Positions 13,802-64,000 of a DNA stretch of 64,000 bases are shown here, one piece after another. The stretch is from an archaeon. Lineage in GTDB: Archaea; Nanobdellota; Nanobdellia; Pacearchaeales; GW2011-AR1. Location of the stretch: contig JABIDS010000013.1 of NCBI GenBank assembly GCA_018651605.1, positions 717 to 64,716 of the forward strand, in the 5' to 3' direction. The notes beneath the pieces were generated by a model that saw only the letters and a program-made list of their open reading frames with translations, did no database searches and was not told the DNA's origin. A program made the translations under genes and the position numbers. Numbering within the stretch: the first letter of the stretch is position 1; every line of letters begins with the position of its first letter.

Positions 13802-13930
13802 AGCTCTGTTGAGTTGTTAGTTTCGTGATTTCAAAATCCCACTAACTTCGACTATCGTCGAAACCCTCCCTTACCACCCCACCGCACCCCCCAATTTATT
13901 TTGTGAAATCACTAAACTTTAAACAGAGCT
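13802..13930. repeat. intergenic long imperfect palindrome with an internal hairpin and a C-tract core
   Basis: Left arm agctctgttgagttgttagtttcgtgatttcaaaat, right arm attttgtgaaatcactaaactttaaacagagct. Internal perfect hairpin ttcgac-tatc-gtcgaa. Core ccctcccttaccaccccaccgcacccccc. Confidence 0.7.
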
Positions 13931-13947
13931 TAGATTATTGATATAAA

Positions 13948-14856
13948 ATGGCAAAAAGAAAAATAATAAAAATTGATGAAGAGAAATGTAATGGATGTGG
14001 GTTGTGTATTCCTAATTGTCCTGAAGGTGCTTTGAAGGTTATTGATGGGAAGGTTCGGTTGATTAGTGATTTGTTTTGCGATGGACTTGGTGCGTGTATT
14101 GGACATTGTCCTGAAGGTGCGATTGAAATTGAGGAGCGTGAGGCAGAGAAATATGATGAAAGAAAAGTTATGGAGAATATTGTTAAACAAGGAGAGAATG
14201 TTGTGAGGGAGCATTTGGAGCATTTGGAGGAACATGGTGCTGATGAGTTTTTGAAAGAGGCTGTTGATTATTTGAATGAGATTGGGATACAAAAATTTTC
14301 TCCCAACAAGGGAAAAAATTTTAGTCTTTTCAAATCTTCCGCAGTAAACTGCGGAGATCAAGATTTGAAAATGAATATTGAACGTAAGGTTGTTGAGAAG
14401 GCTAGTGATTTGCCTTGTGGTTGTCCTGGGACTGCGATGAGAGAAGTGAATGTTTCTGAGGATGTTTCTGAGGATTCTGTTGAATTGAAATCTGCTTTAA
14501 GGCAATGGCCTGTTCAATTGAATTTGTTGCCACCTCATGCTAGTTTTTTTAATGATTCTCATTTGTTGGTTGCTGCAGATTGTGTTCCGTTTGCAGATGC
14601 GAATTTTCATTCTGGTTTGTTGAAAGGAAAAAGTCTTGTTATTGGTTGTCCTAAATTAGATGATGTTAATGGATATGAAGAGAAATTAACTGAGATTTTT
14701 AAGGGAAATAATGTTAAGAGTGTAACTGTGGCGATTATGGAAGTTCCTTGTTGTTATGGGATGTATGCAGCTGTTGAAAATGCTATTGGTGCATCAGGTA
14801 AGGATATTGAATTGAAGAAGGTGGTTGTGGGTGTTGATGGTAGCCTTTCTTTTTAG
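13948..14856 (+). CDS. 4Fe-4S dicluster domain protein with a Cys-rich C-terminal domain
   Basis: Two CxxCxxCxxxCP motifs (CNGCGLCIPNCP, CDGLGACIGHCP). The C-terminal part carries CGCPG, AADCVPF, GCPKLDD and VPCCYG. Confidence 0.7.
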   Translation: MAKRKIIKIDEEKCNGCGLCIPNCPEGALKVIDGKVRLISDLFCDGLGACIGHCPEGAIEIEEREAEKYDERKVMENIVKQGENVVREHLEHLEEHGADEFLKEAVDYLNEIGIQKFSPNKGKNFSLFKSSAVNCGDQDLKMNIERKVVEKASDLPCGCPGTAMREVNVSEDVSEDSVELKSALRQWPVQLNLLPPHASFFNDSHLLVAADCVPFADANFHSGLLKGKSLVIGCPKLDDVNGYEEKLTEIFKGNNVKSVTVAIMEVPCCYGMYAAVENAIGASGKDIELKKVVVGVDGSLSF

Positions 14857-14860
14857 CTGA

Positions 14861-14907
14861 GAAGATTAAAAAATCTTCAGTGCCTCACAAAGTGAAACTT
14901 TCTGAGG
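14861..14907. terminator. two hairpins between convergent genes
   Basis: gaagat-taaaaa-atcttc (14861-14878) and cctcacaaagt-gaa-actttctgagg (14883-14907), located between the stop at 14856 (+) and the stop at 14956 (-). Confidence 0.4.
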
Positions 14908-14955
14908 AAAAAAGAAACTTTAGGGAAAGAAAAACTAAGAATGCTGATAATTAAT

Positions 14956-15786
14956 TTAAACCTGATTTTCTAAAACTTTTTCAGCATCTTTTTTTGCTTT
15001 TGTTTTCATGAAATAATTTCCAATGAATCTGAAATGTCTGAAGAAGTAATATGCGATTATTGAAAGTGTGTTTGGCAATATTATTAGTTTTTTTGAATCT
15101 AATTTTTTTACAATGTGTTTTGCTACAGGCATTGATTGAGATGAGCCTGCTGTCCATTTTTGGACGCAGGTTTTTTGTTCTTCTCCTGTTAGTGATTTGC
15201 ATTTGAATGCAATTGCCCAGAAAGGTGTTTTCATTCTTGCTGGAAATACTGTTGATGTTGAAACTCCTGTTCCTTTTAATTCATAACTTAATGAACGAGT
15301 GAATCCATGAACTGCGTATTTTGCAGAGTTATAGGTGGCGAAATAAGGTGGTGGTTGAATTGCTGCGATAGATGAAATGTTTATTATTTTTCCTGATTTT
15401 TGTTTTTTCATTGAGGGTAAAGTTAATGCACAAAGATGTTGTAATGCTATGACATCTAAATCAATCATTCCTTTTAGGTCTTTGAAATCAATTTTGTCTA
15501 ATGCTCCTAATTTTCCATAACCTGCGTTGTTTATTAGATAATCTATTTTTCCTTCTTTTTTTAAAATTTCTGATATGAGATTTATTCTGAAGGTTTCGTT
15601 GGTTAAATCTCCTGGGATTATTTTTATTTCTCCTTTATCTTTGGTGCATTCTTTTTTTAGTTTTTCTAATTCTTCTTTTCTTCTTGCTGTTATGTATACT
15701 ATTAATCCTTTTTTTGATAGAAGTGTTGCTATGTCTTTTCCTAAACCTGATGATGCACCTGTTACTAAACTCACCTTTTTTTCCAT
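14956..15786 (-). CDS. short-chain dehydrogenase/reductase (SDR)
   Basis: TGASSGLG cofactor motif, NNAG, catalytic YNSAKYAV (YxxxK). Confidence 0.88.
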   Translation of the reverse strand: MEKKVSLVTGASSGLGKDIATLLSKKGLIVYITARRKEELEKLKKECTKDKGEIKIIPGDLTNETFRINLISEILKKEGKIDYLINNAGYGKLGALDKIDFKDLKGMIDLDVIALQHLCALTLPSMKKQKSGKIINISSIAAIQPPPYFATYNSAKYAVHGFTRSLSYELKGTGVSTSTVFPARMKTPFWAIAFKCKSLTGEEQKTCVQKWTAGSSQSMPVAKHIVKKLDSKKLIILPNTLSIIAYYFFRHFRFIGNYFMKTKAKKDAEKVLENQV

Positions 15787-15893
15787 AGTTTATTGAAGGT
15801 GAAGGAGTTTTTAAGGTTTGGGTGGAAGGGATTATTTTTTAGTAACTTTTATAAATATTGGTTTGTTGTAAATGTTGAAAGGAGGTGTATAAT

Positions 15894-16571
15894 ATGAAGA
15901 AATTAGTGATGTTGTTAATGGTAGGTTTTTTAATAATTGGATTAGGAGGTTTTGTTTTGGCTGCGTCTGATGGAGGGGGTACAGGAGGAAATTCTGATGA
16001 AGTTGTTGCTGCAGGTGGACAGGGGGGAGAAAATAGTGGTGATGAATTGCAAGATAATATAGGTACTGGAACTTCTAATCAAGGAGAAAATAGTGAATTA
16101 CAAAATCAGATTAGAACTGGAAATTATGTTAATGCAAATGGGCAACAAATGCAGATTCAAGAAAAATCTAATAATAGGATTGAATTAAAGACGGGTAATT
16201 CTAGGGCTGAAACAGGTTTGAAGATTAGTTCTGAAGAGGTTGAAGGTAAAACTAAATTGAAAGCTACTCTTTCAAATGGTAAAAATGCAGAGGTTAAAGT
16301 TATGCCGGATAGTGCTAGTGAAAAAGCATTGACGAGACTTAGATTAAAAACTTGTTCTGAAGAGGATGGATGCCGAATTGAATTAAAAGAAGTTGGCTCT
16401 GGAGAAAATGCAAAGTTAGCTTATGAAGTTAAAACGCAAAGGACTTCAAGATTCTTGGGTTTATTTAAAATGAAAATGGATGTTGAGGCACAAGTTGATG
16501 CTGAAACTGGAAAGGTGATTCGGACAAAAAAACCTTGGTGGGCATTTTTAGCTAGTGAGCCTGCTGAATAA
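15894..16571 (+). CDS. secreted hypothetical protein
   Basis: MKKLVMLLMVGFLIIGLGGFVLA signal-like N-terminus. GGAGGTG sits 7 nt upstream of this ATG. The track start at 15885 is GTG inside the SD. Confidence 0.55.
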   Translation: MKKLVMLLMVGFLIIGLGGFVLAASDGGGTGGNSDEVVAAGGQGGENSGDELQDNIGTGTSNQGENSELQNQIRTGNYVNANGQQMQIQEKSNNRIELKTGNSRAETGLKISSEEVEGKTKLKATLSNGKNAEVKVMPDSASEKALTRLRLKTCSEEDGCRIELKEVGSGENAKLAYEVKTQRTSRFLGLFKMKMDVEAQVDAETGKVIRTKKPWWAFLASEPAE

Positions 16572-16983: not shown

Positions 16984-17011
16984 TTTTAATAAATAAAAAG
17001 GAGGACAAAAT

Positions 17012-26548: not shown

Positions 26549-26637
26549 ATTCAAAGAATCAAAAGATTCTTTGAATCATAACACTAGAAAATTTTTTAAA
26601 TTTTCTGTGCCACAAAATTCTTTGTAAATTTTGTTGG
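26549..26637. repeat. three consecutive AT-rich hairpins downstream of the signalling island
   Basis: attcaaagaatc-aaaa-gattctttgaat (26549-26578), agaaaattt-ttt-aaattttct, and ccacaaaatt-ctttgta-aattttgttgg. Confidence 0.6.
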
Positions 26638-26696
26638 AAACAAGGGGCTTTTTCAAACCCCTCCTTTAGGGAGGGGTGCCCCATTGTTTTTCTGAT
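26638..26696. repeat. nested-hairpin element, copy 1 (the other copy is 54180-54239)
   Basis: aaacaaggggctttttcaaacccctcctttagggaggggtgccccattgtttttctgat. Outer stem acaaggggc/gcccc(a)ttgt. Inner stem cccctcc/ggagggg. Confidence 0.75.
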
Positions 26697-27633: not shown

Positions 27634-30600
27634 ATGGATAACATAACTGTTTCGCATTCGGTTATTCAGGGCGGAGATACAATTACAATTTGGGCCAATA
27701 CTACTTCTCATGGTGTGAATGATAGTGATGCAGATACTTTGCAATTATTTTGTGATGATACTATTGCTCCTACTTTTGTAAATTCTGATTGTACTGGAGG
27801 GATTACTTCTGATGGTAGTTATCCTTATGCTTTAACTTGTACCTTTGTAGTTCCGAGTGATGATGTGGCTCATGTAGAGTATTGTAGGGTTTATGATGGT
27901 ATTGCTTATTCAAATGTTTCAAATGTGACCTATACTACTGATTCAACTTCTCCTTCATTATCGATTGTTAGTGTTGCAGGAGATAGTGTGGTTAGTTATT
28001 ATGATTCAGTGGATGATTCTGTTAGTGTGATTAATGTTTCTGGTGAGGAAAGTATGTCCTGTAGGTGGAGTTCAAGTGATTTGAGTTATAGTGCTATGAG
28101 TAATGCTTGTTCAACTAATGGGATTTATACTGCTTGTAATGTAAATGATGTTGTTAGTCAGGGATATACTACAAGATATGTTTCTTGTCAAGATAATTAT
28201 ACTAATGGGAATAATGCGACAAATAATTTGAATGTGAATTTTTATTTAGATTATACTGCTCCCACAACTTCGGATGATTCAAGTTCTACGATTATTGCTC
28301 CGAATTATGTTGTTACTTTAAATGAAGGTGATAATGTTGATTCAGATGTTATTACATTATATTGTACTGATACTACGAATACTTGTGCACCTAGTTTAAG
28401 TATTGATGATGGTGGGACTGTAACTTTTACTTCTGCTAATCGTGGAGTTAATTATTTGAGGTATAATTCAACAGATGATGCGGGCAATCAACAAATTACT
28501 GTAAGTAAAACAATTAATATTAATGAGTTGCCTGTTTTTAGTAGTGCTAGTGATGATGCTGTGATTATTGCTGGTGAGGCGGAGGTTAATGTTTCGACGA
28601 TTAGTTCTGATTCTGATGGTTCTCAAACTTTGACATTATGGGTTTGTGATTCAACTTCGGTTACTTCTTCTGGTTGTGGTGGAGGGCATTATTGTAATAC
28701 TAGTGTTTCTAGTGGGGTAAATTTATCTTGTAATTTTTCTTCCGAGTCAGATTCTGCTTTGCATAATTGGTATGCATTTATTTATGATGCTTTGGGAGAG
28801 ATAGCTGTTGCGAATTTTTCTGGAAGTTATACTACTGATTCAGATGGACCTGAAATTACAATTGTTAATCCTGCGAATGATACATTTACTAATGATGATA
28901 TTACTGCTCAAATTGTTTTGAATGAGGGAGGGAGTTTAGCTTGGTATGAGTTGGATGGCAATGGGACTAATGTTACGATGTCTAATTCTTCTACAACTTC
29001 TTGGAATATTAATATTTATAATTTGAGTTTGGGGAATCATAATTTGACTTTTTGGGCGAATGATAGTTATGGGAATGTTGGTGTTAGTGCTATGAGGTAT
29101 TTTGAGATTGCTTTGCCATTAGATACAACTCCTCCTGCGATTACAATTTTGAGTCCTGTAAATGGAAGTTATCAAACTGCTTCTGGAGTTTATATTAATA
29201 TTAGTGCTGATGAGGTTTTGAAAGGAGCTTGGTATGAATTGAATTATAATGGGACAAAGATTGGATTGAGTAATTATACTTCTAGTAATTGGTATGTTGA
29301 TATTAGTTTAAGTGAAGAGAGTGAATATAATTTAACGATTTGGGCGAATGATAGTTCAGATAATGAGAATACTAAGAATATTAGTTTTTATGTTGATTCT
29401 TTGGCTCCTCGTTATAGTTCTGTTAGTGCTTTGCCTTCTATTGCGAATGTTTCTCAGGATGTGAATTGTTCGATTAATTGGATTGATGGTTTTAATTTGA
29501 GTAGTGTTAAGATTAGTGAGAATTCTTCTGGGACTTTTGAAAATCATACTATTGGTTCTTTAGAATTAGGTGGGAGTGCGAGTTATAATATTGTTGGAAA
29601 TAAATTGAATGGTGTTGGAAGTTATGAATGTAGGTTTTATGCTGTTGATAGTGCAGGTAATTTTAATTCTACTTCTGTGAGTTTTAGTGTTAATGATGTT
29701 ACTGTTCCAGTAATTACTGTTACAAGTCCGAGTAATGCAACTTATAATCAGAATTATTTAGATGTTTCTTTAATTGTTTCTGAGAATTCTTCGTGGGCTG
29801 GTTATAGTTTGAATGGTGCTTCGAATGTTACTATGGAGAATACTTCTATGACTAATTGGAATAGGACTTTAACTGGATTGAGTAATGGAGGATATAATAT
29901 TATATTTTATGCAAATGATAGTTCTGGGAATATGGCTAATTCTTCATTGATTCATTTTGCGATTAATACTGGTGCTGCTGATACAACTGCTCCTGTTATA
30001 ACTATTGATACAATTTCAAATGCTTCTTATAAAACTGCTACAAGTGTTGTGGTAAATGTAACTACAAATGAAAATGCAGATTGGGTTGGTTATAAATTGA
30101 ATTCTGGAAGTTTGACTGATATGTCTAATTTAACTTCTGCTATTAAATGGAATGTTACATTGACTGGTTTGGTTGTTGAGAGCTCTAATGATTTAGAGGT
30201 TTATGCAAATGATAGTGCAGATAATGATGGTAGTAAAAATATTACTTTTTATGTAGATAGTGTTGCTCCTAGGATTACGAATATTAGCGCTTCTCCTTCT
30301 CCTGCTAATGAAAGTCAGAATGTTGTTTGTAATGCTTATGTTAATGATACTTTTAGTTTGAGTTCTGTGAAGATTGAAGAGAATGCTTCTAATTCTGGAA
30401 CTTTTGAAAATCATACTTTGGATTTGAGTGCTTCTGGTTGGATGAACTATACTATTTTGAATGTTGAAAAAGGAGCTAATTATACTTGTAGATTTTATGC
30501 AATCGATGCTGCAGGGAATGTGAATAATAGTGAGTTGATTACTTTTGTTGTTAATGATGTGACTGCTCCTGTGATTACAATTAATTCTCCTTTGAATCAG

Positions 30601-33600
30601 AATTATAGTACAGATAATATTTTGTTGAGTGTTAGTTTGAGTGAGGATGCTGTTGTTGATGTTAATTATACTATTGATGGAGGAGTTACAAATGTTAGTT
30701 TATCTGGTAGTGGAAGTAGCTGGAGTGATAGTGTGATTTTTGCTGATGGGAGTAAGACTGTAACTTTTTATGCTTCTGATTCTTCTTGGAATAATGCCTC
30801 TAATTCTGTAACTTTTAATGTTGATACTTCTGTTAATGATGTAACTGCTCCTGCCATTACTGTTTGGAGCCCTTTAAATAATTCTTATGATATAGATGGA
30901 ACTGTTTTGTTAAATATTTCTACAAATGAGGATTTGAGTTGGGCAGGGTATAGTAATAATTCTGCTGACTTGATTGATTTGGATAATGTTTCTACAACTT
31001 ATTGGAATGCTAGTGTTGTTTTTGATGAAGGTCAACATAATTTGACTTTTTATGCTAATGATAGTTCTTCAAATAAAAATCAAGGGAGTAAGGGTTTTGT
31101 TCTTTATGTTGATTTAACAAATCCTGATGTTGAAGGTTTTTCTTGTGGAGATGTTAATGATAGTTTGGATGTTGTTTGTAGTGCTAATGTTAGTGATGAA
31201 ATTGGTTTGAGTTATGCTGTTGTTGGTTATAATTTTACTGGTTCGTGGCAGAATAGTTCTCAGATTAGTTTAAGTAGTGTTAGTTCTAGTTTGAATTATG
31301 TAATTGCTAGTGGGAATAGTTCTCCTGGAGTTTTTGGTGCGGAGATTTATTTGTTTGATTTATCTGGTAGACAGAATTTGACTGTTTCTGATTTGGTTAC
31401 TATTAGTGATGATACTTTACCTTTATTTTCTAATATTAGTTATGTTCCAAATGTAACTGATGATTTGGATCCAGGGGTTTTGGTTAATGTTAGCGTCGCT
31501 GTTAATGAGGATTATAATATTTCTTCTGTGGAGTTGATGTATAAGAATTCTAGTTCTGCTGATTGGAGTTCTATTGTAATGAGTAATGGTTCTGCTTTGA
31601 CTTATTTAGTGGCATCGAATGTTACTTATAATGCTTCTTTTGTTGTTCAGAATGAGACTTGGTATTTTCAAATTAATGCAACTGACTCTGAAGAGAATAG
31701 TGCTTTTTCTTCTAATTATACCTTGCTTGTTGATGATGATATTTCTCAGAATATCAGCACGACAATTCCTCTTACTAAATCTATAACTTATGCGCAAAGA
31801 ACAAGTAATAATTCTTTGGGTTATTTGATTATGAATAATACTGGAGATAGTAGTTTGAATTTTAATATTACTTTGAATTCAAGTGACAGTGGAGTGTTGA
31901 GTAGGTTAAGTGTTAATTATAGTAGGAATCAAACTGCTAACTTTTCTGCTGGTTCTTTGTCTGATGTTAATATTACTATTGATGTTAATACTACTGATTT
32001 AAGTGCAGGATTGTATGATTATAATATTAGTGTTGCTTCTGAATCTGGAACTGAAGTTTTTGCAAGGGGGCTTAATATTCAAACTGCTGCTGGACCTTTA
32101 TTATCTACTTTAATTACAACTTATTCTTCAAATGTTACAAAAGGAGAGAACGATGTTGAGTTAGTTGCTACGGTTACGAATTTGGGAACTGCAGATGCTA
32201 GTAATGTTTTGTTGAATTGGACTTTGCCTTCTGATTTGAGTTTAGCATCTGGAAGTTTATCTAGGAATTTGGGAACCTTAGGAGTTGGAATAAGTGGGAC
32301 TAATACTGTCACAATTAATGTTGCTAGTTCTGCAGGTGATGCAAATGTGAATATAAGTGCAGATGCAACTTCAAGTAATGCAGATTCTTCAAGTATTTCT
32401 AAGATAATTACTATTGGTTCTCCAAGTGTTGTTACAACGACTGTTGGTGGAACTGTTAGTAGTGGTGGAGGTGGTGGAGGTTCTGTTGGAGATGAAGGAG
32501 GAGTAAGTCAAAGTTATGTTAAGACTGTGGAGATAATTAGGGGGGGAGAAGATATTTTTACGATTGATGTTTATAATAAATATCCTAATTCAACTTTGAA
32601 TGATGTAACTCTTAGTTTAAGTGGATATGATGAGCATTATTTTGAATTTTCACCTCAAAAGATTTCCGGAATTAAATACAATGAAACCAAAAGCTTTAAA
32701 GTTAAATTAACTGCGCCATCGTATAAAAGTTATGAAGAAAATATTTTAAAGGCGATGATTAATGGTGATTTAATTCAGAATGGTGCTAGTAGGACTTATA
32801 GTGAGACTCAGAATATTAGATTGCTTATACAAGAAGTAAGTTTAGAGAAAATAATTATTAGCTTAGATGAAGCTGAAAAAGCAATTCAGAAAATGAAAGA
32901 AGCAGGGTTTAATGTTGATGAGGTTGAAAGATTTTTAGAAGAAGCAAGAATAAAATTAAAAGATAATAGAAATAAACAGGCTTGGGATTTGTCTGAAAAT
33001 ATTATTGAGATTAATAATTTGGCTTTTGAGGTTGATACTTTAATAAATAATGTTTTTGCAGTTTTGTCAAATCCTCGGAAAAAGTCTGTGTTAACTCAGG
33101 GGACTGGTTTTAAGGGGAGTGGTTTTTCTGTTAAGGAGTTTTTCTTGGATAGTCCTGCTTTGGAAATGGTTAATTTAGCAAGGGTTGCATTTGAAAGGGG
33201 AGATTATGAACTTGCAAAGAAAAGGGCAGATAGTGCTCGTTCATTGTTGTTGTTTAGTATGAAAGGGAATTTTGGTTTGTTTTTGTATTTGTATTGGTAT
33301 TTTGTTCTTGGATTTATAATTATATTTTCTGCAAGTAGTTTGGTTGGTTATAGGAAATATAAAAAATCAAGTATTACTCAGAGAATTGGGCAATTTGATA
33401 ATGAGGAAAATAATATACGGAAATTGGTTCTTAATTCTCAGAGAAGATATTTTGCAGGGAAGATTAGTGAAGGAGATTATCATGCAACTATAAATCAACA
33501 TAGAAAGAGGTTAGCGAATATAAAGAAGTTTAGAATAAATTTGAGAAATAAGAGGATTAAGATGTTGAAACCTCGGGATATTATTAAGGATTTGGAAGAA

Positions 33601-45585: not shown

Positions 45586-47046
45586 TTATAATTTTTTCCC
45601 CATATAAACTTTATTTTTATCTAATTTATATTTTAGTTTTTTGTAGTATTCTCTGACTCCAACTCCTGAGATTATTTGTAGGTTTTTGATGTTGTGTTTT
45701 TTTGTTATTTGTTCGGCTTCGTGGATTAATTGTTTTCCTAAACCTGTGTGTTGTCCAAGGTGTTTTGGTTTTTGTCCTATGGAGAGAGATTGTCCGTAGA
45801 CATGGATTTCTCTTATGATTGCCTTACTATTTGTTTCAGCATTATCAATCCCAATAACCCCTCCCACCCGCCCGTTGTTGGGATAATACTGAAACTTATC
45901 TTTCTGATTTGTTATTCTTAATCTAAGAAGTGCGAAAAGAATGTTTTGGTTGTTTGTTATTTCTAGAAAGTATTCTGTTCCATTTTGTGCTTGGTATTTT
46001 GTTGTTTTGAGTTTTAGTTTTGGATTTATTTTTTGGTTTTTTTGAAGGTCTCTAATATGGAAACCTATTTCTCTGAATCTTATTTCGTTTATTTTTGTTT
46101 TTGATTGTTTTAGGTTTTGTTCTATGTCTCTTCTTAAGTCTATTCTTGTTGTTCCTGCTGTTAGAAATTCTGGAGGAATTTCTCTCATTACTCTCATTAC
46201 TCTGCAATAATTTGGAATTATTTTCATTATTTGGATTATTAATTCTTGGATTTGTTCTTTTGAGTAAGGTTTGTATTTTTGTTTTTTGTGGGTTTTTTCT
46301 AATTGACTTCCTTTGATTACTTGACAAGGATAGATTTTTAATTGGTCTGGTTTGAAGTCTTGATTTTTGAAAAGTGTTTCAAAGGTTTGTAAATCTTTTT
46401 TTGGATTGCTTTTTGGTAAGCCGAGCATCATGTGATAGCCGATTTTGAATCCTGCGTTTTTTAGTTGATGTGTGGCTTGGATTACGTCTTCAACTGTGTG
46501 TCCTCTGTTTACTGCTTTGTATATTTTATTGTCTAGACATTGAACGCCTAGTTCTACTCTTGTGCATCCGTAGTTTAGGATTTTTTGAATTGATTTTTGG
46601 TTTATTGAATCTGGACGAGTTTCTATGCAAAGTGCAACGCATCTGTGTTTTGCTTTTTGGTTTAGTTTTTTTGCTTGTTCTAATGTTTTGGATTGTTTTT
46701 TATTTAATGCGTCGTAGATTTGTTTTATGAAATTGTTTTGATATTTTGTTGGGAAGTTTAGGAAGTCTCCTCCCATGATTATTATTTCTATTTTTTCTGT
46801 TGGATGGTTCATTAAGTTGAATGCTTTTAATCTTGATTTTACTTGTTCTTCTGCGTTGTATTTTAGGATTTCTGCTCTTAGAACTGGCGGAGATTTTGGA
46901 GTATATGATTGTGGAACGTTTAATGATGGGCAGTAGGTGCATGTTCCGTGTTTGCATTTTTTTGGTTTGCACATTACTGCGATTGGTGTGACGCCTGCTA
47001 AGGTTTTTGATGGTTTACGTATTTCTCCTTGTTGTGGGATTTTCAT
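45586..47046 (-). CDS. elp3: Elp3-family radical-SAM / GNAT tRNA U34 carboxymethyl-transferase homolog
   Basis: N-terminal VTPIAVMCKPKKCKHGTCTYCPS, a radical-SAM TIM-barrel region, and a C-terminal GNAT block IREIHVYGQ...HTGLGKQLIHEAE...ISGVGVREYYKKLKY. Confidence 0.85.
   Translation of the reverse strand: MKIPQQGEIRKPSKTLAGVTPIAVMCKPKKCKHGTCTYCPSLNVPQSYTPKSPPVLRAEILKYNAEEQVKSRLKAFNLMNHPTEKIEIIIMGGDFLNFPTKYQNNFIKQIYDALNKKQSKTLEQAKKLNQKAKHRCVALCIETRPDSINQKSIQKILNYGCTRVELGVQCLDNKIYKAVNRGHTVEDVIQATHQLKNAGFKIGYHMMLGLPKSNPKKDLQTFETLFKNQDFKPDQLKIYPCQVIKGSQLEKTHKKQKYKPYSKEQIQELIIQIMKIIPNYCRVMRVMREIPPEFLTAGTTRIDLRRDIEQNLKQSKTKINEIRFREIGFHIRDLQKNQKINPKLKLKTTKYQAQNGTEYFLEITNNQNILFALLRLRITNQKDKFQYYPNNGRVGGVIGIDNAETNSKAIIREIHVYGQSLSIGQKPKHLGQHTGLGKQLIHEAEQITKKHNIKNLQIISGVGVREYYKKLKYKLDKNKVYMGKKL
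45833..45895 (-). repeat. in-frame palindromic G-tract element (diverged copy) inside elp3
   Basis: + strand: gtttcagcattatcaatcccaataacccctcccacccgcccgttgttgggataatactgaaac. It has 14-bp terminal inverted repeats (1 mismatch) and is 63 nt = 21 codons. It encodes QYYPNNGRVGGVIGIDNAE. Confidence 0.75.
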
Positions 47047-48670: not shown

Positions 48671-50068
48671 TCATTGCAACAACCTAATAAATTGTTCCCA
48701 TTCGTATCTTAATTTTTTTAGGGTTGATGTGCTTTTGTAGATGTTGTAGTCTGTAGTGTAAATTCTATTTTGATTGTTGTAGATTTTATTGAAATAATCA
48801 TTTGTTTGTTTTGTTATTGAGGAGTTGTTTGGTGATGTGATTTTTATGTCTGATTGTAAGTTGTAAAGTCTTATGTTGTTGTTTGCGATGTTTGTTGAAC
48901 CTGTTAGAATGGTTGTATGGGTTTGATTGGTTATTGTTATGAGTTTTGTGTGGAATTGTTCTCCGTGAGATTTATACCAACGAATGTTTATTTTGTTGTT
49001 TGATTCTTTGAGGAGTTTTTCTGCGACTGGTTTGTTTGGTATTCCAAATTTTTGTTGTGAAAAGAAAAAGTCGTTTGTATCTAAGATTATGTTTATGTTT
49101 GCTCCTCTTTTTGATGCTTGGATTAATTGGTTGGTTGTTTTTTTGTCTGATAAAGTGAACATTGCTATGTTTATTGTATGTTCTTGGTTTGTTTTTGATA
49201 GTTCTTTTTTTAGTGAGTGCATTAGTCCGTTGTCGGCTAGGTATTGGACTTTTATTGGTTTATTTTCCCCTTCTCCTTCGGCATTATCAATCCCTATTAA
49301 CCCACCCATCCCACCCTTAATTGGGATAATGCCTTCATCCCCTCCAACAGGCTCTTGAAAGTTGTCTATAAAACTTTGAATTTGTTGATTGTTAATGTTT
49401 GCATCTTTTATTTCTAGGTTGTAAACATCTTGCCAGATTTTTTCTTTGATTAATATTGCAGTGTTTGAGTTTGGACTGCTCTGATCGTGAGGGTTTGCTG
49501 ATGTGATTAGGGTGTGGATTTGATTGTTGTTATCTGCGATTATGAATTTTCTATGGTTTAGTCTTTTTTTTGCTTTTTTGAGGAGATAGTTTGTTATTGG
49601 ATTTTTATTTATGGGGGTGTAGATTATGTTTATGTTGTTTTGTTCTAGTTGGTTTATGAATGGTTTGTTGTATGGTTTGTTTATTATGTTGAATTTGTCT
49701 GTTATGAAGTAGATAGGCATGTTTGGATTTGATTGTTTTTTGTTTATTAGTTGGGTTGTTAATTCTTGGGTTAGGTTTTTTAGGTGTGGTTCTTTTGTTG
49801 TTCCGAATAAGAACATGTTTATTATTATGAAGTTTTCTGCGTTTTGGATTATATTGTAGGTTTTGTTGAAGATTTCTTGGTTGTATTGGATGTTTTGGTT
49901 TTTATCTTCATAGGTTAAGTCTGAAAGGAATTGGATTGAATCTTCTGAGATTTGGTGGGTTGGACTTATGATGGTTCTTCCTTTTGGTAGTGAGATGTAG
50001 TAGATTAAAATTAGGATTATTAAGAGGGAGATTATGGTTAGGAGGATTTTTATAGTTCTCTTTTTCAT
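48671..50068 (-). CDS. phospholipase D / cardiolipin-synthase-family protein (two HKD motifs) with an N-terminal TM anchor
   Basis: HRKFIIAD...TSAN and HTKLITIT...GSTN; TM helix IKILLTIISLLIILILIYYI. Confidence 0.8.
   Translation of the reverse strand: MKKRTIKILLTIISLLIILILIYYISLPKGRTIISPTHQISEDSIQFLSDLTYEDKNQNIQYNQEIFNKTYNIIQNAENFIIINMFLFGTTKEPHLKNLTQELTTQLINKKQSNPNMPIYFITDKFNIINKPYNKPFINQLEQNNINIIYTPINKNPITNYLLKKAKKRLNHRKFIIADNNNQIHTLITSANPHDQSSPNSNTAILIKEKIWQDVYNLEIKDANINNQQIQSFIDNFQEPVGGDEGIIPIKGGMGGLIGIDNAEGEGENKPIKVQYLADNGLMHSLKKELSKTNQEHTINIAMFTLSDKKTTNQLIQASKRGANINIILDTNDFFFSQQKFGIPNKPVAEKLLKESNNKINIRWYKSHGEQFHTKLITITNQTHTTILTGSTNIANNNIRLYNLQSDIKITSPNNSSITKQTNDYFNKIYNNQNRIYTTDYNIYKSTSTLKKLRYEWEQFIRLLQ
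49280..49333 (-). repeat. in-frame palindromic G-tract element inside the PLD-family gene, between the two HKD halves
   Basis: + strand: ggcattatcaatccctattaacccacccatcccacccttaattgggataatgcc. It is 54 nt = 18 codons and encodes GIIPIKGGMGGLIGIDNA. It is 53/54 identical to 53029-53082. Confidence 0.85.
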
Positions 50069-50832: not shown

Positions 50833-51993
50833 ATGAAAACAGAAAATGCAAAGGGATTTAAAGATGCTGAGAATGCGTTGAAGAAAATTCAGATAAGAAA
50901 TATAATCGAGCAGACGTTTCAATTGTATAATTTTATTCCAGTTGAAACTCCTATAATAGAATATGAAGAATTTGTAAAGGGAGAGAATCCTAATGATGAG
51001 GCTGTTTCAGATATTTTTAAGTTGAAGGATAAGGGTAAGAGGGATTTGGCTTTAAGATATGAGTTTACTTTTCAGTTGAAAAGATTGGCTAAAAATAAAA
51101 AGCTTCCTTATAAGAGATATCAGATAGGTCCTGTATTTAGGGATGAGCCTGTAACTGGAAATAGGTGGAGGCAATTTACTCAATGTGATATAGATGTAGT
51201 TGGGGCAAGTGTTAAAGATGAGGCAGAAATTTTGAGGGCAACTTCAGATATTTTGAAGAAATTGAAGATTGATTTTGTGATTAATATTAATAATAGGAAA
51301 TTGTTGAATGAGATTTTGGAAGAGTTGAAGATTTCTGAGAAAAATAAGTTGCAAGTAATTAATGAGATAGATAAGTTGGATAAGCTTTCTGAATCTGAGG
51401 TGAAAAGGAATTTGAAGAAGTATGGGGCTGAGAAACTTTTGGCTGTTTTTAAGAAGCCTGAGTCTTATTTTAAGAAGTATGAATCTTATGCGGATGTGAA
51501 GGAGTTGAAGAAGTTTTGTTTGTATTATGGGATAAAGGTTAATTTTCAGGCTTTTTTGGCGAGGGGTTTGTCTTATTATAATGGTTCTATTTTTGAAATT
51601 AAATCTAAGAATTTGAAAGAGACTATAATTGCTGGTGGTTCGTATATGGTGAATAATGTTCAGGCGACTGGGATTTCTTTGGGTTTGGAGAGATTGGAGC
51701 TTTTGGCTAATGTTTCTATGAATTATAAAAAGGTTTTAATTATTTCCTTGAATCAGGATAAGATTGCTGTTGGTGTTGCGGATAGTGTTCGTGAGTTAGG
51801 TATTCCTGTTCAGATTTTGTTTGGTAAAGTTGGAAAGGCTCTTGAGTATGCTAATTCTTTGGATATGCCTTTAGTTGTTTTTATTGGTGAAGAGGAAGTT
51901 AAGAAGGGGAAGGTTAAGTTGAAGAATATGAATAGTGGTAAGGAGAAGTTTGTTTTAATGTCTAAGTTGGGGAAGGAGTTGGAGGGATTGTAG
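50833..51993 (+). CDS. hisS: histidyl-tRNA synthetase
   Basis: GFKD...IRNIIEQTFQLYNFIPVETPIIEYEE, FKLKDKGKRDLALRYEFTFQLKR, YQIGPVFRDEPVTGNRWRQFTQCDIDVVG (class II motif 2), GGSY (motif 3 region), and a C-terminal anticodon-binding fold. Confidence 0.88.
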   Translation: MKTENAKGFKDAENALKKIQIRNIIEQTFQLYNFIPVETPIIEYEEFVKGENPNDEAVSDIFKLKDKGKRDLALRYEFTFQLKRLAKNKKLPYKRYQIGPVFRDEPVTGNRWRQFTQCDIDVVGASVKDEAEILRATSDILKKLKIDFVININNRKLLNEILEELKISEKNKLQVINEIDKLDKLSESEVKRNLKKYGAEKLLAVFKKPESYFKKYESYADVKELKKFCLYYGIKVNFQAFLARGLSYYNGSIFEIKSKNLKETIIAGGSYMVNNVQATGISLGLERLELLANVSMNYKKVLIISLNQDKIAVGVADSVRELGIPVQILFGKVGKALEYANSLDMPLVVFIGEEEVKKGKVKLKNMNSGKEKFVLMSKLGKELEGL

Positions 51994-52091
51994 TTGTGGG
52001 TGTTGGTGTAGGTTTGGTTGGTGGGTGTTGTGGGTTCTCGCGACTGGACAAGTCCAAGTCGCTTCACCTTGCAGTCTTGAAATCTTTTTAG

Positions 52092-52137
52092 AGATTTTAT
52101 TGAGGTTATGAGTTTTCTTTTTGGTTGTTGATGAGAT
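52092..52137 (+). repeat. dispersed ~45-nt intergenic repeat, copy 1
   Basis: agattttattgaggttatgagttttctttttggttgttgatgagat versus 54246-54289 agatttattggggtatgagttttctttttgattgttgataggat (about 40 of 46 positions). It is preceded by the GC-rich hairpin gcgactggac-aa-gtcca(a)gtcgc at 52040-52062. Confidence 0.7.
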
Positions 52138-52189
52138 ATATAGTTTGTGTTGCAATTAATTTTATTAATGTTTATGTTCGTCTAAATTT

Positions 52190-52429
52190 ATGTCTGATCA
52201 AAAAATCCTTCCTGGAAATATTTATCTTAATATTACTAGGGCAAGTGCAACTCGTAAATTAAGAGTTGATATTTATAAGGTTCTTGATGGATCTCATATG
52301 TCTCATGGAATAAGTCATGGTAAGAATTATGGGAGTTTTTTTCTCCAAGATGAAAGGGGTTTGGATAGAGATTTGTCTGAAATGACTGTTTCAGAATTAG
52401 TTGAGATGGTGGAAGTTAATTTAGAATAA
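52190..52429 (+). CDS. hypothetical protein
   Basis: 79-aa ORF with a TATA-like box about 25 nt upstream. Confidence 0.4.
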   Translation: MSDQKILPGNIYLNITRASATRKLRVDIYKVLDGSHMSHGISHGKNYGSFFLQDERGLDRDLSEMTVSELVEMVEVNLE

Positions 52430-52431
52430 TT

Positions 52432-53643
52432 TTATTCTCCATAAACTCTCTGCACCTTTTCTTTAAATTCTTTAAATGTTCCTTTTTTGATATGTTCTTT
52501 GGCTTGTTTGATTAAATTTTGTAAATAGTAAAGATTATGGTAAGATGCTAAATGTTTTCCTGTAGGTTCTTCTTGTTTTAAGAGAAATCTTATATAGGCT
52601 TTTGTGTAGTTTTTGCATGTTTTGCAATTGCAGTTTTTGTCTATAGGTGTTTTATCTGTTTCATATTTTTTGTTTAGGAGTTTGAGTTTTCCTTTTGATG
52701 TGAAGAGTGTTCCTCTTCTTGCGTTTTGAGTTGGAAGTCTTGAGTCGAATATATCTACTCCGTAGGAGATTGCTTCAAGTATTTCTGATGGGGAGCCTAT
52801 TCCCATTAAGTAAACTGGTTTGTTGTTTGGAATGATTGTTTTTTGTTGTTTGACTATTTTCATTTCTTCTTGAAATGTTTCTCCCATTCCAAAACCTCCT
52901 ATTGAGTATCCGTCAAAGTTGAGTTTTGTTAATTCTCGTGCTGATTGTTTTCTTAAATCTTTATGGATTCCTCCTTGAGTTATTCCGAAGAGAAGTTGTT
53001 TTTTTGTTTTATTCCTTTTTTCCCTTTCGGCATTATCAATCCCTATTAACCCACCCGTCCCACCCTTAATTGGGATAATGCCTAAACCTTTTTTACCCCT
53101 CCTTTGCAATTTGTCATGGGTTTCTTTACATCTTTTTGCCCAATTTGTTGTTAGATTTACTGCTGTTTGTATTTCTTTTTTTGAATCTTCATATAATGGC
53201 ATTCTATCTAAACACATTGCAACATCGCTGTTGATGTCTGTTTGTATTTTCATGTTTTCTTCAGGTGTCATGAATATTTTTTCTCCTGAGATTGGGTTTT
53301 TGAATGTAACTCCTTTTTCATTTGATTTTATGTAGATTGATGGTGAATACATTTGAAATCCTCCGGAATCTGTGAAGTTTATTAATTGTGTGTTCATGAA
53401 TTTTTTTATTCCTCCTAGTTTTTTTATTGTTTTTGTTCCAGGTCTTAAAGATAGAATGAATGCGTTTGAGATTGTTGCTGTTGCTCCTAGTTTTTTTAGT
53501 TGTGATTGTGTTAAGAATTTTGCTGCTGCTTTTGTTGAGACTGGCATAAAAAAAGGTGTTTGGATTTCTCCTGATTTTGTTATTAGTGTTGCGATTCTTG
53601 CTTTTGTTTTTTTGTCTTGATGGGTTATTGTGAATGGTTGCAT
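52432..53643 (-). CDS. tgt: tRNA-guanine transglycosylase, catalytic domain only; resembles the bacterial/eukaryal queuine-type Tgt
   Basis: TPFFMPVSTKAA, ISNAFILSLRPG, DRMP, LFGITQGG, DGYSIGG, YLMGIGSP, DIFDSRLPTQNARRGTLF, and the Zn motif CNCKTCKNY...H. There are no C-terminal PUA or ArcTGT-specific domains. Confidence 0.85.
   Translation of the reverse strand: MQPFTITHQDKKTKARIATLITKSGEIQTPFFMPVSTKAAAKFLTQSQLKKLGATATISNAFILSLRPGTKTIKKLGGIKKFMNTQLINFTDSGGFQMYSPSIYIKSNEKGVTFKNPISGEKIFMTPEENMKIQTDINSDVAMCLDRMPLYEDSKKEIQTAVNLTTNWAKRCKETHDKLQRRGKKGLGIIPIKGGTGGLIGIDNAEREKRNKTKKQLLFGITQGGIHKDLRKQSARELTKLNFDGYSIGGFGMGETFQEEMKIVKQQKTIIPNNKPVYLMGIGSPSEILEAISYGVDIFDSRLPTQNARRGTLFTSKGKLKLLNKKYETDKTPIDKNCNCKTCKNYTKAYIRFLLKQEEPTGKHLASYHNLYYLQNLIKQAKEHIKKGTFKEFKEKVQRVYGE
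53029..53082 (-). repeat. in-frame palindromic G-tract element inside tgt
   Basis: + strand: ggcattatcaatccctattaacccacccgtcccacccttaattgggataatgcc. It is 54 nt and encodes GIIPIKGGTGGLIGIDNA, just upstream of the conserved LFGITQGG block. Confidence 0.85.
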
Positions 53644-53887
53644 GATTGGGATAAGTTTTGGTTGTTATTTAAGGTTTGGGTTGGGTTGGGTTGGTAGTTG
53701 GTTTTGGTTGGGTTGGGAATATTTCCAACCCTGCGGAAAGCCGGTTTCACCTTTTCCTTTCCGCACCTAGGTTTTGAAATCTTGTTAAAGAGTTCTTTTA
53801 TGTAGGTGATGGAATTGATTTTTTTATAAGTTGGTTGAATTTTTTTAGTATAATAATACTTATATAATAAAAAATGTTTAAATTATA

Positions 53888-54172: not shown

Positions 54173-54179
54173 CTCTTAA

Positions 54180-54239
54180 AAACAAGGGGCTGTTTCAAAC
54201 CCACACCTTTAGGTGTGGGTGCCCCATTGTTTTTCAGAT
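54180..54239. repeat. nested-hairpin element, copy 2 (the other copy is 26638-26696)
   Basis: aaacaaggggctgtttcaaacccacacctttaggtgtgggtgccccattgtttttcagat. The inner stem cccacacc/ggtgtggg differs from copy 1 by compensatory changes. Confidence 0.75.
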
Positions 54240-54395: not shown

Positions 54396-55358
54396 TTATG
54401 CAGTTTCTCTTTCTTGATAGAGTCTGAAGAAATTATCTATTGGAGATTCTATTGGAGGACCCCATTTTTTTGCATTTTCTTTGTGATATTTTTTGACATC
54501 ATCATCTTTTGCAAGAATTGTGAATTTGAAAAAAGTATGAAATACTTCTTGTTGTGTTGGGTCTGAGATTATTGAGGGTTGTGTTGGTTCATATTGTGGA
54601 GGGTTTGTTTCAGGGTTTGTGTTTACTTTTATTTCAATTGAAGATTGATAAGGGTTTGTTGTTAAAATTATTTTACTTTGAGGAGGGAATAGATAAAGTT
54701 TTCTGTCCCACCCTATGTATGGGCTTATTGTTTCTGTAAGTGGGCTTGTTAAATTGTCTTTTAGTATTTTATCTAGGACTTTTTTGTTTGATTTTGTGAA
54801 TGTTAATTCTGGGTCTAGTTTTAGATTGTCGTATTTTTGGTCTAATTCTTGGTTGCTGTATTTTATGAATTGTTTTGCTCCTTCTTGGAGTTCTTTTAGT
54901 AAGTCTTCGTGATTTATTGGACCGGGATGAATAACTGGGAATCCTTTGAGTACCGGAGTTATGGTGCTTTGCATTGGTGTGTCTTTTATTAGATTGTAAA
55001 ACTCTTGTTTATCCTTTCCATTTGGAAGATTTTCCCATGTTTGTTTTTCAAATGCAAATTGGGCATTAACTGTGTGAACTAGTCCTTTTGCTTTCATTAC
55101 TGGTCTTGTGGCGATTATATGGTATTCTATTGGTTCTGTTGGTGTAGGTGTTGTTAATGAAGGGGTTTGATAGGGTGTTGAAATTGGTTCAGGAGTTGGG
55201 TTTGGTTTAGGGGTTAATGAAGGGGTTTGGTTTGGTGTATTTTTAGAACGTCTAGAACGTCTAGGGCTTGGTTCAGAGTGAGCATAAGTTGGTAGAATTA
55301 AAGTTGTTGCGGTTGTTGCGATTGTTGCAAGGGCAGTTCTTCTTGATATTAGTTTCAT
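54396..55358 (-). CDS. secreted hypothetical protein with a twin-arginine-like signal and a Pro/Thr-rich linker
   Basis: MKLISRRTALATIATTATTLILPTYAHS, followed by PSPRRSRRSKNTPNQTPSLTPKPNPTPEP. Confidence 0.6.
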   Translation of the reverse strand: MKLISRRTALATIATTATTLILPTYAHSEPSPRRSRRSKNTPNQTPSLTPKPNPTPEPISTPYQTPSLTTPTPTEPIEYHIIATRPVMKAKGLVHTVNAQFAFEKQTWENLPNGKDKQEFYNLIKDTPMQSTITPVLKGFPVIHPGPINHEDLLKELQEGAKQFIKYSNQELDQKYDNLKLDPELTFTKSNKKVLDKILKDNLTSPLTETISPYIGWDRKLYLFPPQSKIILTTNPYQSSIEIKVNTNPETNPPQYEPTQPSIISDPTQQEVFHTFFKFTILAKDDDVKKYHKENAKKWGPPIESPIDNFFRLYQERETA

Positions 55359-61918: not shown

Positions 61919-62173
61919 TAATTTTCAAAACCTCGACACCATGTTTTTTTAATCTTTCTCTTGGGCGATTTTGAAGTGGGAGATCTTTGATTTTCATTCT
62001 TCTTTTTGTTTTATGTTGATATTATTAGGAAACCGAAAGATTTTTATATATATTTATATTATATATATCAAGCAGTAATGCGCTTTGGCGCTTCGCGATT
62101 TATCGCGTGGCAATATTGGTCACGGCTCTTAGAGCTCTGGTTACTGCCTATTTTTTTATAATCTTGATAAAAC

Positions 62174-64000
62174 CTATATCTCTATAGAGAGCACCTTACT
62201 AATCCCCTCCTGCATACTCACCCCATATAAAATATCACTCGACTCACTAATAATCGAATCATTATGTGTAATCACAATATATTGCCCTTGTTTCATATTC
62301 TTTTTGAACAAATAAGCAAGTTTCTCACTATTTCTTCTATCTAATGCGGCATCAATTTCATCAAAGATATAGAAACAATAAGGTTTGAGTTCTTGAATTG
62401 CGAATATCAATGATAAAGCCACAAGGGTCTGTTCTCCTCCTGATAAAGACGTGACATCAAAGATTTTCCTACCTGACATTCTTACGATGATGTTTAATCC
62501 TTTTTCAAAGACATCTTTTTTATCTTGGGGTTCTATTGTTACGATTCCTTTGGTGCTGAGTTGACTAAAATTACGAGAGAATAGGGTGTTGATATCTTTT
62601 AATGTTGTTAGAAATGCTTTCTTTTTCTTTTTATCTATTTGTTCAATGATTTTTAGGATTTCTAATTTTTCTTCATCTAATTGGTTTACTTTTTCTTTTA
62701 TTTTGTCGTATTGTTCTTTGATGCCTTCGTAAACTTCTAATGCTCTAAGGTTGACGTTTCCTATTCTGTTAAGTGTGTTTTCTGAGTTGTTTAGTTTTTC
62801 TTTTAGTTTTTCTAAGGGTAGGCTGATGAATTCGATATCTGCGAATTCTTCTAAATCTTGTTTAAATGTGTCGATTCTTGCAGTGATTTGTGCTTTGATA
62901 ATCATAAGGTTGTTTATATCATTTTCAATTAATCTTTTGTTGTTCTGGACTTTCATTAATTCTGTTTCTAAAATTCTTGATTTGTCTTGAAGGATGTTTT
63001 TTTCTTCAAACATTTTTTGATATTTATTTTTTAATTTATCTGCTTGACTTTCTTTTATATTTGTTTTTTCTTGCTTTTCTTCTATTGTGATTGTGATTTC
63101 TTTTAGGTCTTCTGTGATTTCTTGTTTATCTCTAATGTTTTGTTTAATTGCTAATTTTATTCTCTCTAGTTCTCTTTGTTTGGTTGTTATTTCTGCTCCT
63201 AAGTTTCTTTCTTCTGTTCTTTCTAATTCATTAACTTCTAATTTTAATTTTTCATAATCTTCTTCACTCATTTTAATTTTAGAGAATTGATTTTCTAGTG
63301 TTTGTTTTTTTGTTTTAAGATTCTTTAATTCTTTTTCTAAATCTTGGATTTGTTCTGAATCTCTTTTTAATTGTTGTTTTTTGTCCTCGATTGTTTGTAA
63401 TTTTACTATGTCTATGTTTCTTGTATTTATTTCCATTGCTTGTTTTGCTATTGTTTGTTTTAATTCTGATAGGGTGTTTTTGTTTTCTTTAATTTTTTCT
63501 TGTGTTGTTTGAATTAATTGTTTTGATGTTTGAATTATTTTATCTGATTTATCTTTGACTTCTTTTATATGTTTTTCTGTGATGTTTGTTTTACATAATG
63601 GACATGTGTCTAATTCTGAGACTTGTTTTTTTATTTTTTCAGCTTCACTTATTTTTTGTTCTTCTACTGCGAATATTTTTTCTTTTTCTATTAGTTTTGT
63701 TTCTATTTCTTGGTTTTTTTGTTTGTTTGATTCTAAATCTGAGTTTAGGTGGATAAGTGCTTGTTTGTGGTGATTTATTGATGTTGTAGTTCTATTAGCT
63801 CCACCCCTTTTTTCAAACGTCATTTTATTATTTGTTGCACCCGCCCGCGAACCACCCTTAAATGAATGACGTTTGAAATCTCCACCCCCAATAGCATGAT
63901 TTTCAAACTCTCCTTTTATTTTAATTTCTTTCTCAATCTGTTCAATCTGTTCAACAATAAAGTTTGATTCATTCTTTAGTCTTTGAATTTGTCTTTCTTT
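62174..64000 (-). CDS. smc: SMC-type chromosome-segregation ATPase, C-terminal ~608 aa (N-terminus outside the window), with a Rad50-like CPLC hook motif
   Basis: C-terminal head: NRIGNVNLRALEVYE, LSGGEQTLVALSLIFAIQELKPYCFYIFDEIDAALD, QYIVITHND, ILYGVSMQEGISKV. This is SMC-type rather than Rad50-type. My own translation shows the frame stays open from 63823 up to nt 64000 (KERQIQRLKNESNFIVEQIEQIEKEIKIKGEFENHAIGGGDFKRHSFKGGSRAGATNNK-MTFEK...). Confidence 0.85.
   Translation of the reverse strand, partial: KERQIQRLKNESNFIVEQIEQIEKEIKIKGEFENHAIGGGDFKRHSFKGGSRAGATNNKMTFEKRGGANRTTTSINHHKQALIHLNSDLESNKQKNQEIETKLIEKEKIFAVEEQKISEAEKIKKQVSELDTCPLCKTNITEKHIKEVKDKSDKIIQTSKQLIQTTQEKIKENKNTLSELKQTIAKQAMEINTRNIDIVKLQTIEDKKQQLKRDSEQIQDLEKELKNLKTKKQTLENQFSKIKMSEEDYEKLKLEVNELERTEERNLGAEITTKQRELERIKLAIKQNIRDKQEITEDLKEITITIEEKQEKTNIKESQADKLKNKYQKMFEEKNILQDKSRILETELMKVQNNKRLIENDINNLMIIKAQITARIDTFKQDLEEFADIEFISLPLEKLKEKLNNSENTLNRIGNVNLRALEVYEGIKEQYDKIKEKVNQLDEEKLEILKIIEQIDKKKKKAFLTTLKDINTLFSRNFSQLSTKGIVTIEPQDKKDVFEKGLNIIVRMSGRKIFDVTSLSGGEQTLVALSLIFAIQELKPYCFYIFDEIDAALDRRNSEKLAYLFKKNMKQGQYIVITHNDSIISESSDILYGVSMQEGISKVLSIEI
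63800..63889 (-). repeat. palindromic C/G-tract element inside the smc coiled-coil region, flanked by 9-nt direct repeats
   Basis: Perfect 14-bp inverted repeat tttcaaacgtcatt (63811-63824) / aatgacgtttgaaa (63865-63878). The loop contains cacccgcccgcgaaccaccc. ctccacccc occurs at 63800-63808 and at 63880-63888. Confidence 0.7.

Follow-up and report, generated by a model that had tools for sequence, protein, structure and literature searches.

The 64,000-nucleotide (nt) window analysed here, taken from contig JABIDS010000013.1 of an archaeon of the Pacearchaeales, contains six C-rich tracts, all of them on the forward (+) strand, which is otherwise depleted of C. The question raised by this locus is what these tracts belong to, and why they are all oriented the same way. 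The answer proposed below is that they mark short insertion elements made of a GC-rich imperfect palindrome, very probably selfish and non-autonomous, and read through as tolerated loops when they land in genes. We hold a tie between their common polarity and the direction of replication to be probable rather than demonstrated, with about even chances. The six sites are the following, with coordinates on +:

13819-13918 (+): intergenic imperfect palindrome, arms 13819-13836 and 13901-13918, 89% complementary; C-tract 13864-13892.
37375-37422 (+): ATPase insertion, 48 nt, in frame, in a P-type Ca-ATPase-like gene (35893-38544, plus strand); C-tract 37397-37411.
45832-45906 (+): copy A insertion, 75 nt, in frame, in an Elp3-like radical-SAM gene (45586-47046, minus strand); C-tract 45858-45873.
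49266-49343 (+): copy B insertion, net 72 nt, in frame, in a PLD-like gene (48671-50068, minus strand); C-tract 49301-49316.
53020-53100 (+): copy C insertion, 81 nt, in frame, in a bacterial-type Tgt gene (52432-53643, minus strand); C-tract 53050-53065.
63773-63901 (+): SMC insertion, 129 nt, in frame, in an SMC gene running from 62174 to beyond 64000 (minus strand); C-tract 63839-63858.

The + strand of the window is composed of 9.2% C, 23.4% G, 38% T and 29% A (32% G+C), and 87 CCC runs were counted on it. Clusters of at least three such runs within 45 nt were found 6 times, exactly at the six sites, against a mean of 0.09 clusters and a maximum of 2 after shuffling in 500-nt blocks. Four-tract motifs with loops of 1 to 3 nt occurred 4 times as C-tracts on + and 0 times as G-tracts on +: G is 2.5 fold commoner than C on this strand, yet the tight four-tract motifs are only on the C side. 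Coordinates and counts thus bear out what a first-pass annotation of the window had claimed, namely that all six C-tracts lie on +, that they run against the bias of a C-depleted strand, and that their hosts are four minus-strand genes, one plus-strand gene and one intergenic site. The same annotation took the minus strand to be always the one capable of forming a G-quadruplex. This is correct for the six elements, but not in general, as looser G-quadruplex-capable tracts were found on + itself at 38485, 58933 and 53678. At 5 of the 6 sites an inverted repeat encloses the tract in its loop; in the ATPase gene the tract adjoins a hairpin instead.

Comparison with homologous sequences indicates that the five genic sites are lineage-specific in-frame insertions, missing from relatives. 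Their lengths (75, 72, 81, 129 and 48 nt) are all multiples of 3, and the reading frame is intact with the inserts included. Loci of relatives were reached via Tgt and SMC homologues, which carry the names Pacearchaeota or Nanoarchaeota; these loci are numbered L133, L135 and L138-L148, and no such element was present in the loci reached. Elp3 has 25 additional residues compared to three orthologues, each 460 residues long. The PLD-like gene has 24, missing at both the protein and the DNA level from the syntenic relative L133. For Tgt, the 27 additional residues are missing from 16 of the 16 closest homologues (at most 81% identity) and from solved Tgt structures. The 43 residues added to SMC are missing from 6 homologues, one of them 90% identical and from the same sample, and the insertion is also missing at the DNA level in L146 and L143. 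Finally, the 16 residues of the ATPase are missing from five homologues (at most 74% identity) and from Listeria LMCA1. An AlphaFold model of Tgt had an overall predicted local distance difference test score (pLDDT) of 81 and a predicted template modelling score (pTM) of 0.83; residues 184-210, which span the insert, had a pLDDT below 50 and no secondary structure, and the insert models as a disordered loop.

By their sequences, the Elp3, PLD and Tgt inserts (copies A, B and C) can be assigned to one imperfect-palindrome family, with CCCACCCNTCCCACCC as its loop. The palindromes span 45833-45895 in copy A (GTTTCAGCATTATCAATCCCAATAAC / GTTGTTGGGATAATACTGAAAC), 49280-49333 in copy B (GGCATTATCAATCCCTATTAA / TTAATTGGGATAATGCC, loop CCCACCCATCCCACCC) and 53029-53082 in copy C (loop CCCACCCGTCCCACCC), the loop in each case being occupied by the C-tract. 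With a covariance model, they scored 87.7, 91.1 and 96.5 bits respectively, and the DNA fold of copy A had a z of -5.8. Between copies B and C, the hairpin is identical except at 1 of 54 positions, with different flanks and in unrelated host genes; the flanks of copy B are C-rich (CCCCTTCTCC and CCCCTCC). In copy A, the stem is preserved via 3 double-sided, compensatory changes. An asymmetric bulge of 3-4 nt on one arm (ATTATC-AAT-CCC) is common to all three copies. Each strand of the family element has a single open frame, giving GIIPIKGGxGGLIGIDNA on one strand and ALSIPINPPIPPLIGIMP on the other. The minus-strand reading is QKDKFQYYPNNGRVGGVIGIDNAET in copy A, and the peptides read in copies B and C are ..GGDEGIIPIKGGMGGLIGIDNAEGEGE.. 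and RGKKGLGIIPIKGGTGGLIGIDNAERE. A further copy of the family was detected in the metagenome runs X1 and X2, with 5 differences in 46 nt relative to window positions 53035-53080, and other, T-rich flanks (CTTTTGTCATTTTGAAATTTGCTTTGCGAA before, ATTTCTTATTAAAGTTATTTTAATAAATAT behind).

The remaining two genic inserts have only the C-tract core in common with the family. The SMC insert is weakly related to it, as suggested by 16 bits (E 0.19) with the covariance model and a z of ~3 in local alignment. It contains a perfect 14-bp inverted repeat, TTTCAAACGTCATT (63811-63824) with AATGACGTTTGAAA (63865-63878), whose loop contains CACCCGCCCGCGAACCACCC; the hairpin is flanked by direct CTCCACCCC(C) tracts and by an outer CTATT/AATAG pair, and the insert reads NHAIGGGDFKRHSFKGGSRAGATNNKMTFEKRGGANRTTTSIN. 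In the ATPase gene, the hairpin GGAATCTTT/AAAGATTCC (37371-37392) adjoins and does not enclose the tract CCCACCCGCCCACCC (37397-37411), and the peptide SFLKDSEAHPPTRDLM is read off the C-rich strand. The core of this insert, CCCACCCGCCC, is significantly similar to copies A and C (z of 4.6 and 6.1). The C-tract core CACCCGCCC recurs on the same strand in the Elp3, ATPase and SMC inserts. Membership of the intergenic site in the set is uncertain, its similarity to the family being marginal (p 0.04-0.06). It has an inner hairpin (TTCGAC/GTCGAA, 13847-13862) next to its C-tract, and is located upstream of a small minus-strand HxlR-type gene (13386-13742), with a plus-strand 4Fe-4S gene (13948-14856) on its other side. 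The one metagenome contig found, covering 13810-13874, ends within the C-tract, and no other context was seen.

The boundaries of the inserts are ambiguous by several nt, and the inverted-repeat arms, 8-22 nt long, are at their ends or nearly so. The C-rich repeats beside the hairpins are part of the insert and not of the target, because ancestral sites are devoid of them. A fold-back of host flanks, similar to P nucleotides, was rejected as a source of the stems, given that three genes carry identical arms and that the SMC arms are unrelated to the ancestral site. That these arms do not derive from host flanks supports an insertion element. An archaeal bulge-helix-bulge intron was excluded as well, since there is a single bulge of 3-4 nt on one arm instead of two 3-nt bulges on opposite strands with a 4-bp helix between them, and so were known RNA families: a search of the window with Rfam returned two tRNAs only, and no match for the elements.

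Selfish palindromes inserted in frame are well known from Rickettsia and from organelles, and no report of them in DPANN archaea was found in the DPANN and Pacearchaeota literature searched. We know of no case in which a canonical short-loop G-quadruplex motif forms the loop of such elements. Precedents exist both for in-frame palindromic selfish DNA (PMC10969869) and for mobile GC-rich hairpins in AT-rich genomes (PMC4478555), and the closest analogues of the present elements appear to be the Rickettsia palindromic elements, or RPEs (PMC10969869), and the mobile GC-rich hairpins of AT-rich mitochondria (PMC4478555). With RPEs (Ogata et al. 2000; review, PMC10969869) they share a short, repeated palindromic structure, in-frame insertion into housekeeping genes that are unrelated to one another, a host genome that is small, reduced and AT-rich, translation into an additional peptide where the fold allows it, and the absence of a linked transposase. 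RPEs differ in being bacterial, ~100-150 bp long and present in dozens of copies, with no G-quadruplex or i-motif loop and no uniform polarity reported, whereas the archaeal elements are 48-129 nt long, few, and have a (CCCN)n loop. The two share no sequence similarity and belong to different domains of life; membership of the RPEs by descent is therefore excluded, and the analogy is one of function only. Like the GC clusters of fungal mitochondria (yeast and others; GC42, PMC4478555), they are GC-rich hairpins in an AT-rich genome, present or absent among close relatives, with constrained stems and an unknown mechanism of movement. GC clusters are mostly intergenic, organellar and inserted at AG targets, and their loops are variable; in the archaeal elements, by contrast, nothing is better conserved than the loop tract. 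As in a classical miniature inverted-repeat transposable element (MITE), terminal inverted repeats are present. Palindromes read through within coding sequences are also known from the mitochondria of Nematomorpha (PMC6649704), but these are perfect and protein-coding, with arms of up to 284 bp, no tract-rich loop and no family shared across genes. The elements would be set apart from all these analogues by their DPANN host, their conserved G-quadruplex/i-motif loop, their low copy number, and an apparent polarity combined with an excess in lagging-strand genes.

We infer that the elements are mobile. They would have arrived recently, in a single Pacearchaeota-like lineage, where five landed in frame in conserved genes and would be read through. 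In lagging-strand genes the outcome would be a glycine-rich loop, and in the single leading-strand gene a proline-rich loop; both seem to be tolerated. The organism was found in four marine metagenome runs (Logan contigs) at ~5x, with contigs breaking at the family copies, and three more runs contained nothing. A search for the pattern ATTATCAATCCC-N(15-40)-GGGATAAT in collections of metagenome and genome contigs gave 80 and 52 loci, all attributable to chance and devoid of C-tract loops, and two scans of viral contigs gave no match to the element core.

To interpret polarity, the + strand must be placed relative to the fork. GC skew on + was between +0.2 and +0.65 in all 2-kb bins except the last, and ~85-88% of the genes are on +. 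As the skew is positive and most genes are on +, this strand reads as the leading-strand sequence, that is, as the lagging-strand template; the window is on a single replichore. In proteins encoded by minus-strand genes, K, N, I, Q and T are abundant and G, V, A and E scarce: the bias is strong enough to shape proteins. The skew, at +0.3 to +0.65, is linked to replication and not to transcription, because minus-strand genes retain a positive skew on +. It is also strong in L133, L143 and L146, but not in L135 and L138-L142, which are relatives of similar identity.

The six tracts thus lie in the orientation that a C-depleting bias should erode fastest, which gives the polarity additional weight, in a way not expressible as a number. 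No mirrored element was detected in the window by a scan for perfect-stem hairpins or by a scan for 7-bp stems, and the covariance model, applied to both strands with filters off, gave no mirrored family copy. A glycine-rich extra segment in the plus-strand ScpA gene (GSGGEVGVGLGGGGGIGSG, 41718-41774, containing GGGGGTGGCGGTGGG) was considered as a mirrored copy, but it lacks both C and a palindrome and was therefore rejected. It is G-only, is comprised between two 9-nt TGGTTCTGG repeats that start at 41718 and 41766, 48 nt apart, the second ending at 41774, and looks like the product of slippage in a G-rich coding sequence, which is its probable origin.

Minus-strand genes occupy ~12% of the window and host 4 of the 6 sites, or 4 of the 5 genic copies (P ~0.0025 if these are independent), and in them the G-rich strand is the sense strand, read as GIIPIKGGxGGLIGIDNA. 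In the syntenic block, Elp3, PLD, Tgt and SMC, all on the minus strand, have each gained 24-43 residues, and HisRS, the methyltransferase, NUDIX and rhomboid genes, on the plus strand, show no gain in length. Gene polarity alone does not account for these facts, because plus-strand genes offer a seven-fold larger target and have zero G-sense copies. Chromosome polarity alone fails too, as most copies would then sit in plus-strand genes. The earlier view that polarity holds regardless of host-gene direction, and is set by the chromosome and not by transcription, has therefore to be amended: orientation is indeed uniform along the chromosome, but the phrase misleads when 4 of 5 genic copies are in minus-strand genes, and neither polarity by itself fits the data.

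We infer instead that two filters act on selfish elements of the MITE, RPE or mitochondrial GC-cluster kind. At the DNA level, a strand bias would place or retain the C-tract strand on the G-rich strand. It could come from insertion into single-stranded DNA at the fork, where the lagging-strand template is exposed, or from the loss of copies having their very stable G-quadruplex motif (GGGTGGGNNGGGTGGG) on the lagging-strand template; the data do not separate insertion bias from G-quadruplex-dependent loss. At the protein level, mainly the G-sense reading would survive, a filter suggested by the fact that each element strand has one open frame. Combined, the two would leave copies mostly in lagging-strand genes, and may explain both the polarity and the excess in minus-strand genes. 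We consider this complete scheme about as probable as its negation.

The first-pass annotation had proposed that insertion follows a mechanism of the IS200/IS605 or REP/RAYT type. In this scheme, a Y1/HUH enzyme (IS200/IS605 TnpA or RAYT) encoded elsewhere would recognise the hairpin and paste the C-tract strand into the lagging-strand template, polarity being set by the direction of the fork. It is a reasonable lead: the C-tract strand is uniformly that of the lagging-strand template, loops are conserved and stems covary, and the bulge shared by the three family copies makes their stem imperfect. In IS200/IS605 miniatures and REP/RAYT systems (PMC5027513, PMC6006769), imperfect stems likewise allow strand-specific recognition of hairpin DNA, and IS608 and ISDra2 enter the lagging-strand template in an orientation that follows replication (PMC5027513, PMC6006769). 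The anatomy of the elements lends it no support, however. IS200/IS605 elements depend on a Y1/HUH enzyme, a pair of subterminal hairpins and a target tetra- or pentanucleotide that is fixed; none of these is demonstrable here: each element has one hairpin centred on the C-tract instead of a left-end and right-end pair, and no target or guide tetranucleotide could be shown to be shared. A YTTC lies just 5' of the left arm, or starts it, in five elements, which is a weak signal given that the strand is 38% T and the stem start is free. REPs need a 5' GTAG followed by a palindrome and are extragenic and abundant, whereas 5 of the 6 elements are intragenic, the family numbers three copies in the window, with a single further context seen in four metagenome runs, and there are no paired units. 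As the annotation had stated, no gene for such a transposase was seen in the window: no HUH, Y1 (Y1_Tnp), RAYT or other transposase domain was present in the ~30 window open reading frames (ORFs) scanned, nor in a precomputed Pfam list for ~32 kb (42-64 kb of the window and 10 kb beyond). Nor does single-strand transposition, taken alone, account for the excess in minus-strand genes. Altogether this route is unlikely, and so is a HUH/Y1-type enzyme as the cause. Doubtful too is the bolder proposal of a new archaeal mobile hairpin with a G-quadruplex/i-motif loop, mobilised by a nuclease and inserted strand-specifically at the fork or at head-on transcription-replication conflicts, with a polarity that flips at origin and terminus; copies would then accumulate in lagging-strand genes with one polarity.

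Several observations weigh against replication-linked insertion elements as such. Neither a transposase nor a nuclease gene was found in the sequences and gene lists available. A consistent target-site duplication was not found: direct repeats of 6-8 nt flank four inserts (TCCCCT for PLD, ATTTGTT for Elp3, CCTTTTTT for Tgt and TGATTT for SMC), with a spacing equal to the insert for PLD only (72), the others being 78 vs 75, 73 vs 81 and 126 vs 129 respectively. In 36 kb of the strongly skewed relatives L133, L143 and L146, no such element is present. When 5.8 billion proteins were searched with a profile of the element-coded peptide, nothing matched, so the family is either rare or limited to this genome. 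The metagenome runs, at ~5x and with contigs that break at the elements, showed neither empty sites nor excised forms. Decayed mirrored copies would be hard to spot, because it is C-islands that are conspicuous on a C-poor strand. The proline-rich reading has been tolerated at least once. Finally, three of the six sites belong to one family inside 8 kb, a region where minus-strand genes cover about half of the sequence, which weakens the statistics on gene direction.

This last point is also the basis of an explanation without any replication link, in which few events, local copying in the same orientation (by gene conversion or short hops) between neighbouring minus-strand genes, and unrelated C-rich inserts would produce the 6 out of 6 by descent and chance. 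The first-pass annotation had given such uniformity a ~3% chance, but the six are not independent events: with the three-copy family counted once, ~4 events remain, and the two-sided P is ~0.125. In the same direction, the metagenome runs (four, for SMC) contain the SMC element and the intergenic element in one copy each, and the intergenic site is of marginal similarity to the others. Chance and descent account poorly for an orientation exposed to the fastest erosion, for the lack of any G-sense copy in the seven-fold larger target of plus-strand genes, and for the occurrence of CACCCGCCC on one strand in Elp3, ATPase and SMC, which have separate conserved cores. We rate this explanation as a minor but real possibility.

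A selected cis-acting signal was also considered. The G-quadruplex and hairpin, in the mRNA or the non-template strand of head-on genes, could modulate translation, R-loops or fork passage, or the element could be a polar DNA site for the replication or segregation machinery. Enrichment in head-on genes with a G-rich sense strand, a G-quadruplex motif with very short loops, and stems maintained by compensatory changes all speak for it. Against it, the elements are missing from relatives that share the skew and carry these genes on the corresponding strand, and other minus-strand genes of the window have no element (SDR, 14956-15786; the ORF 54396-55358; RNase HII). Arbitrary loops inside conserved coding sequence are more typical of tolerated selfish DNA, and Rfam has no match. 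We regard a selected signal as very improbable, and selfish insertion elements sorted by the two filters remain the reading that we favour. If their polarity follows replication, the elements would naturally mark the direction of the fork in uncultured archaea lacking known origins, and would point to strand-specific insertion or G-quadruplex-dependent deletion in a lineage whose GC skew is among the strongest seen. If it does not, they would still be a clean example of a tiny, streamlined genome tolerating insertions in Elp3, Tgt, SMC and an ion pump.

Some other features of the window deserve mention. The Tgt encoded at 52432-53643 belongs to the bacterial queuine type: among solved structures it matches the Thermotoga Tgt best (E 4e-85, vs 7e-22 for the archaeosine TGT), and this bacterial type is widespread among Pacearchaeota homologues. 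The HisRS-Tgt pair (50833-53643) is inverted with respect to the Elp3-PLD block, compared with the closest syntenic relative, L133. Skew in Tgt is weak (+0.10 on +), as expected of a gene recently moved onto the lagging strand.

Other structured elements were found between genes. A candidate element in L146 was rejected as a member of the set: it is not an insertion but a structured intergenic element, conserved and with a counterpart in the window. There, the hairpin at 53727-53771 (GCGGAAAG-CCGGTTTCACCTTTTC-CTTTCCGC) has its homologue on the opposite strand at positions 3752-3794 of L146 (GCGAAAAG-GGAAAGGTGAACCGG-CTTTTCGC); the stem is retained through compensatory change, and the element is located near the Tgt/rhomboid/SMC block. 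A (GGGTT)n-like G-tract on +, at 53678-53717, adjoins this hairpin. A nested hairpin occurs in two intergenic copies on the same strand, at 26636-26695 and 54174-54238. It has the form aaacaaGGGGC..tttcaaaCCCCTCC-ttta-GGGAGGGG-t-GCCCCattgttttt, and the inner stem of the second copy is CCCACACC/GGTGTGGG; pairing has been kept, as indicated by compensatory changes in the inner stem. This may be a family of small structured RNAs or of terminators, with no Rfam match. The window also contains two giant plus-strand ORFs, at 198-8090 (2630 residues) and 27634-34521 (2295 residues).

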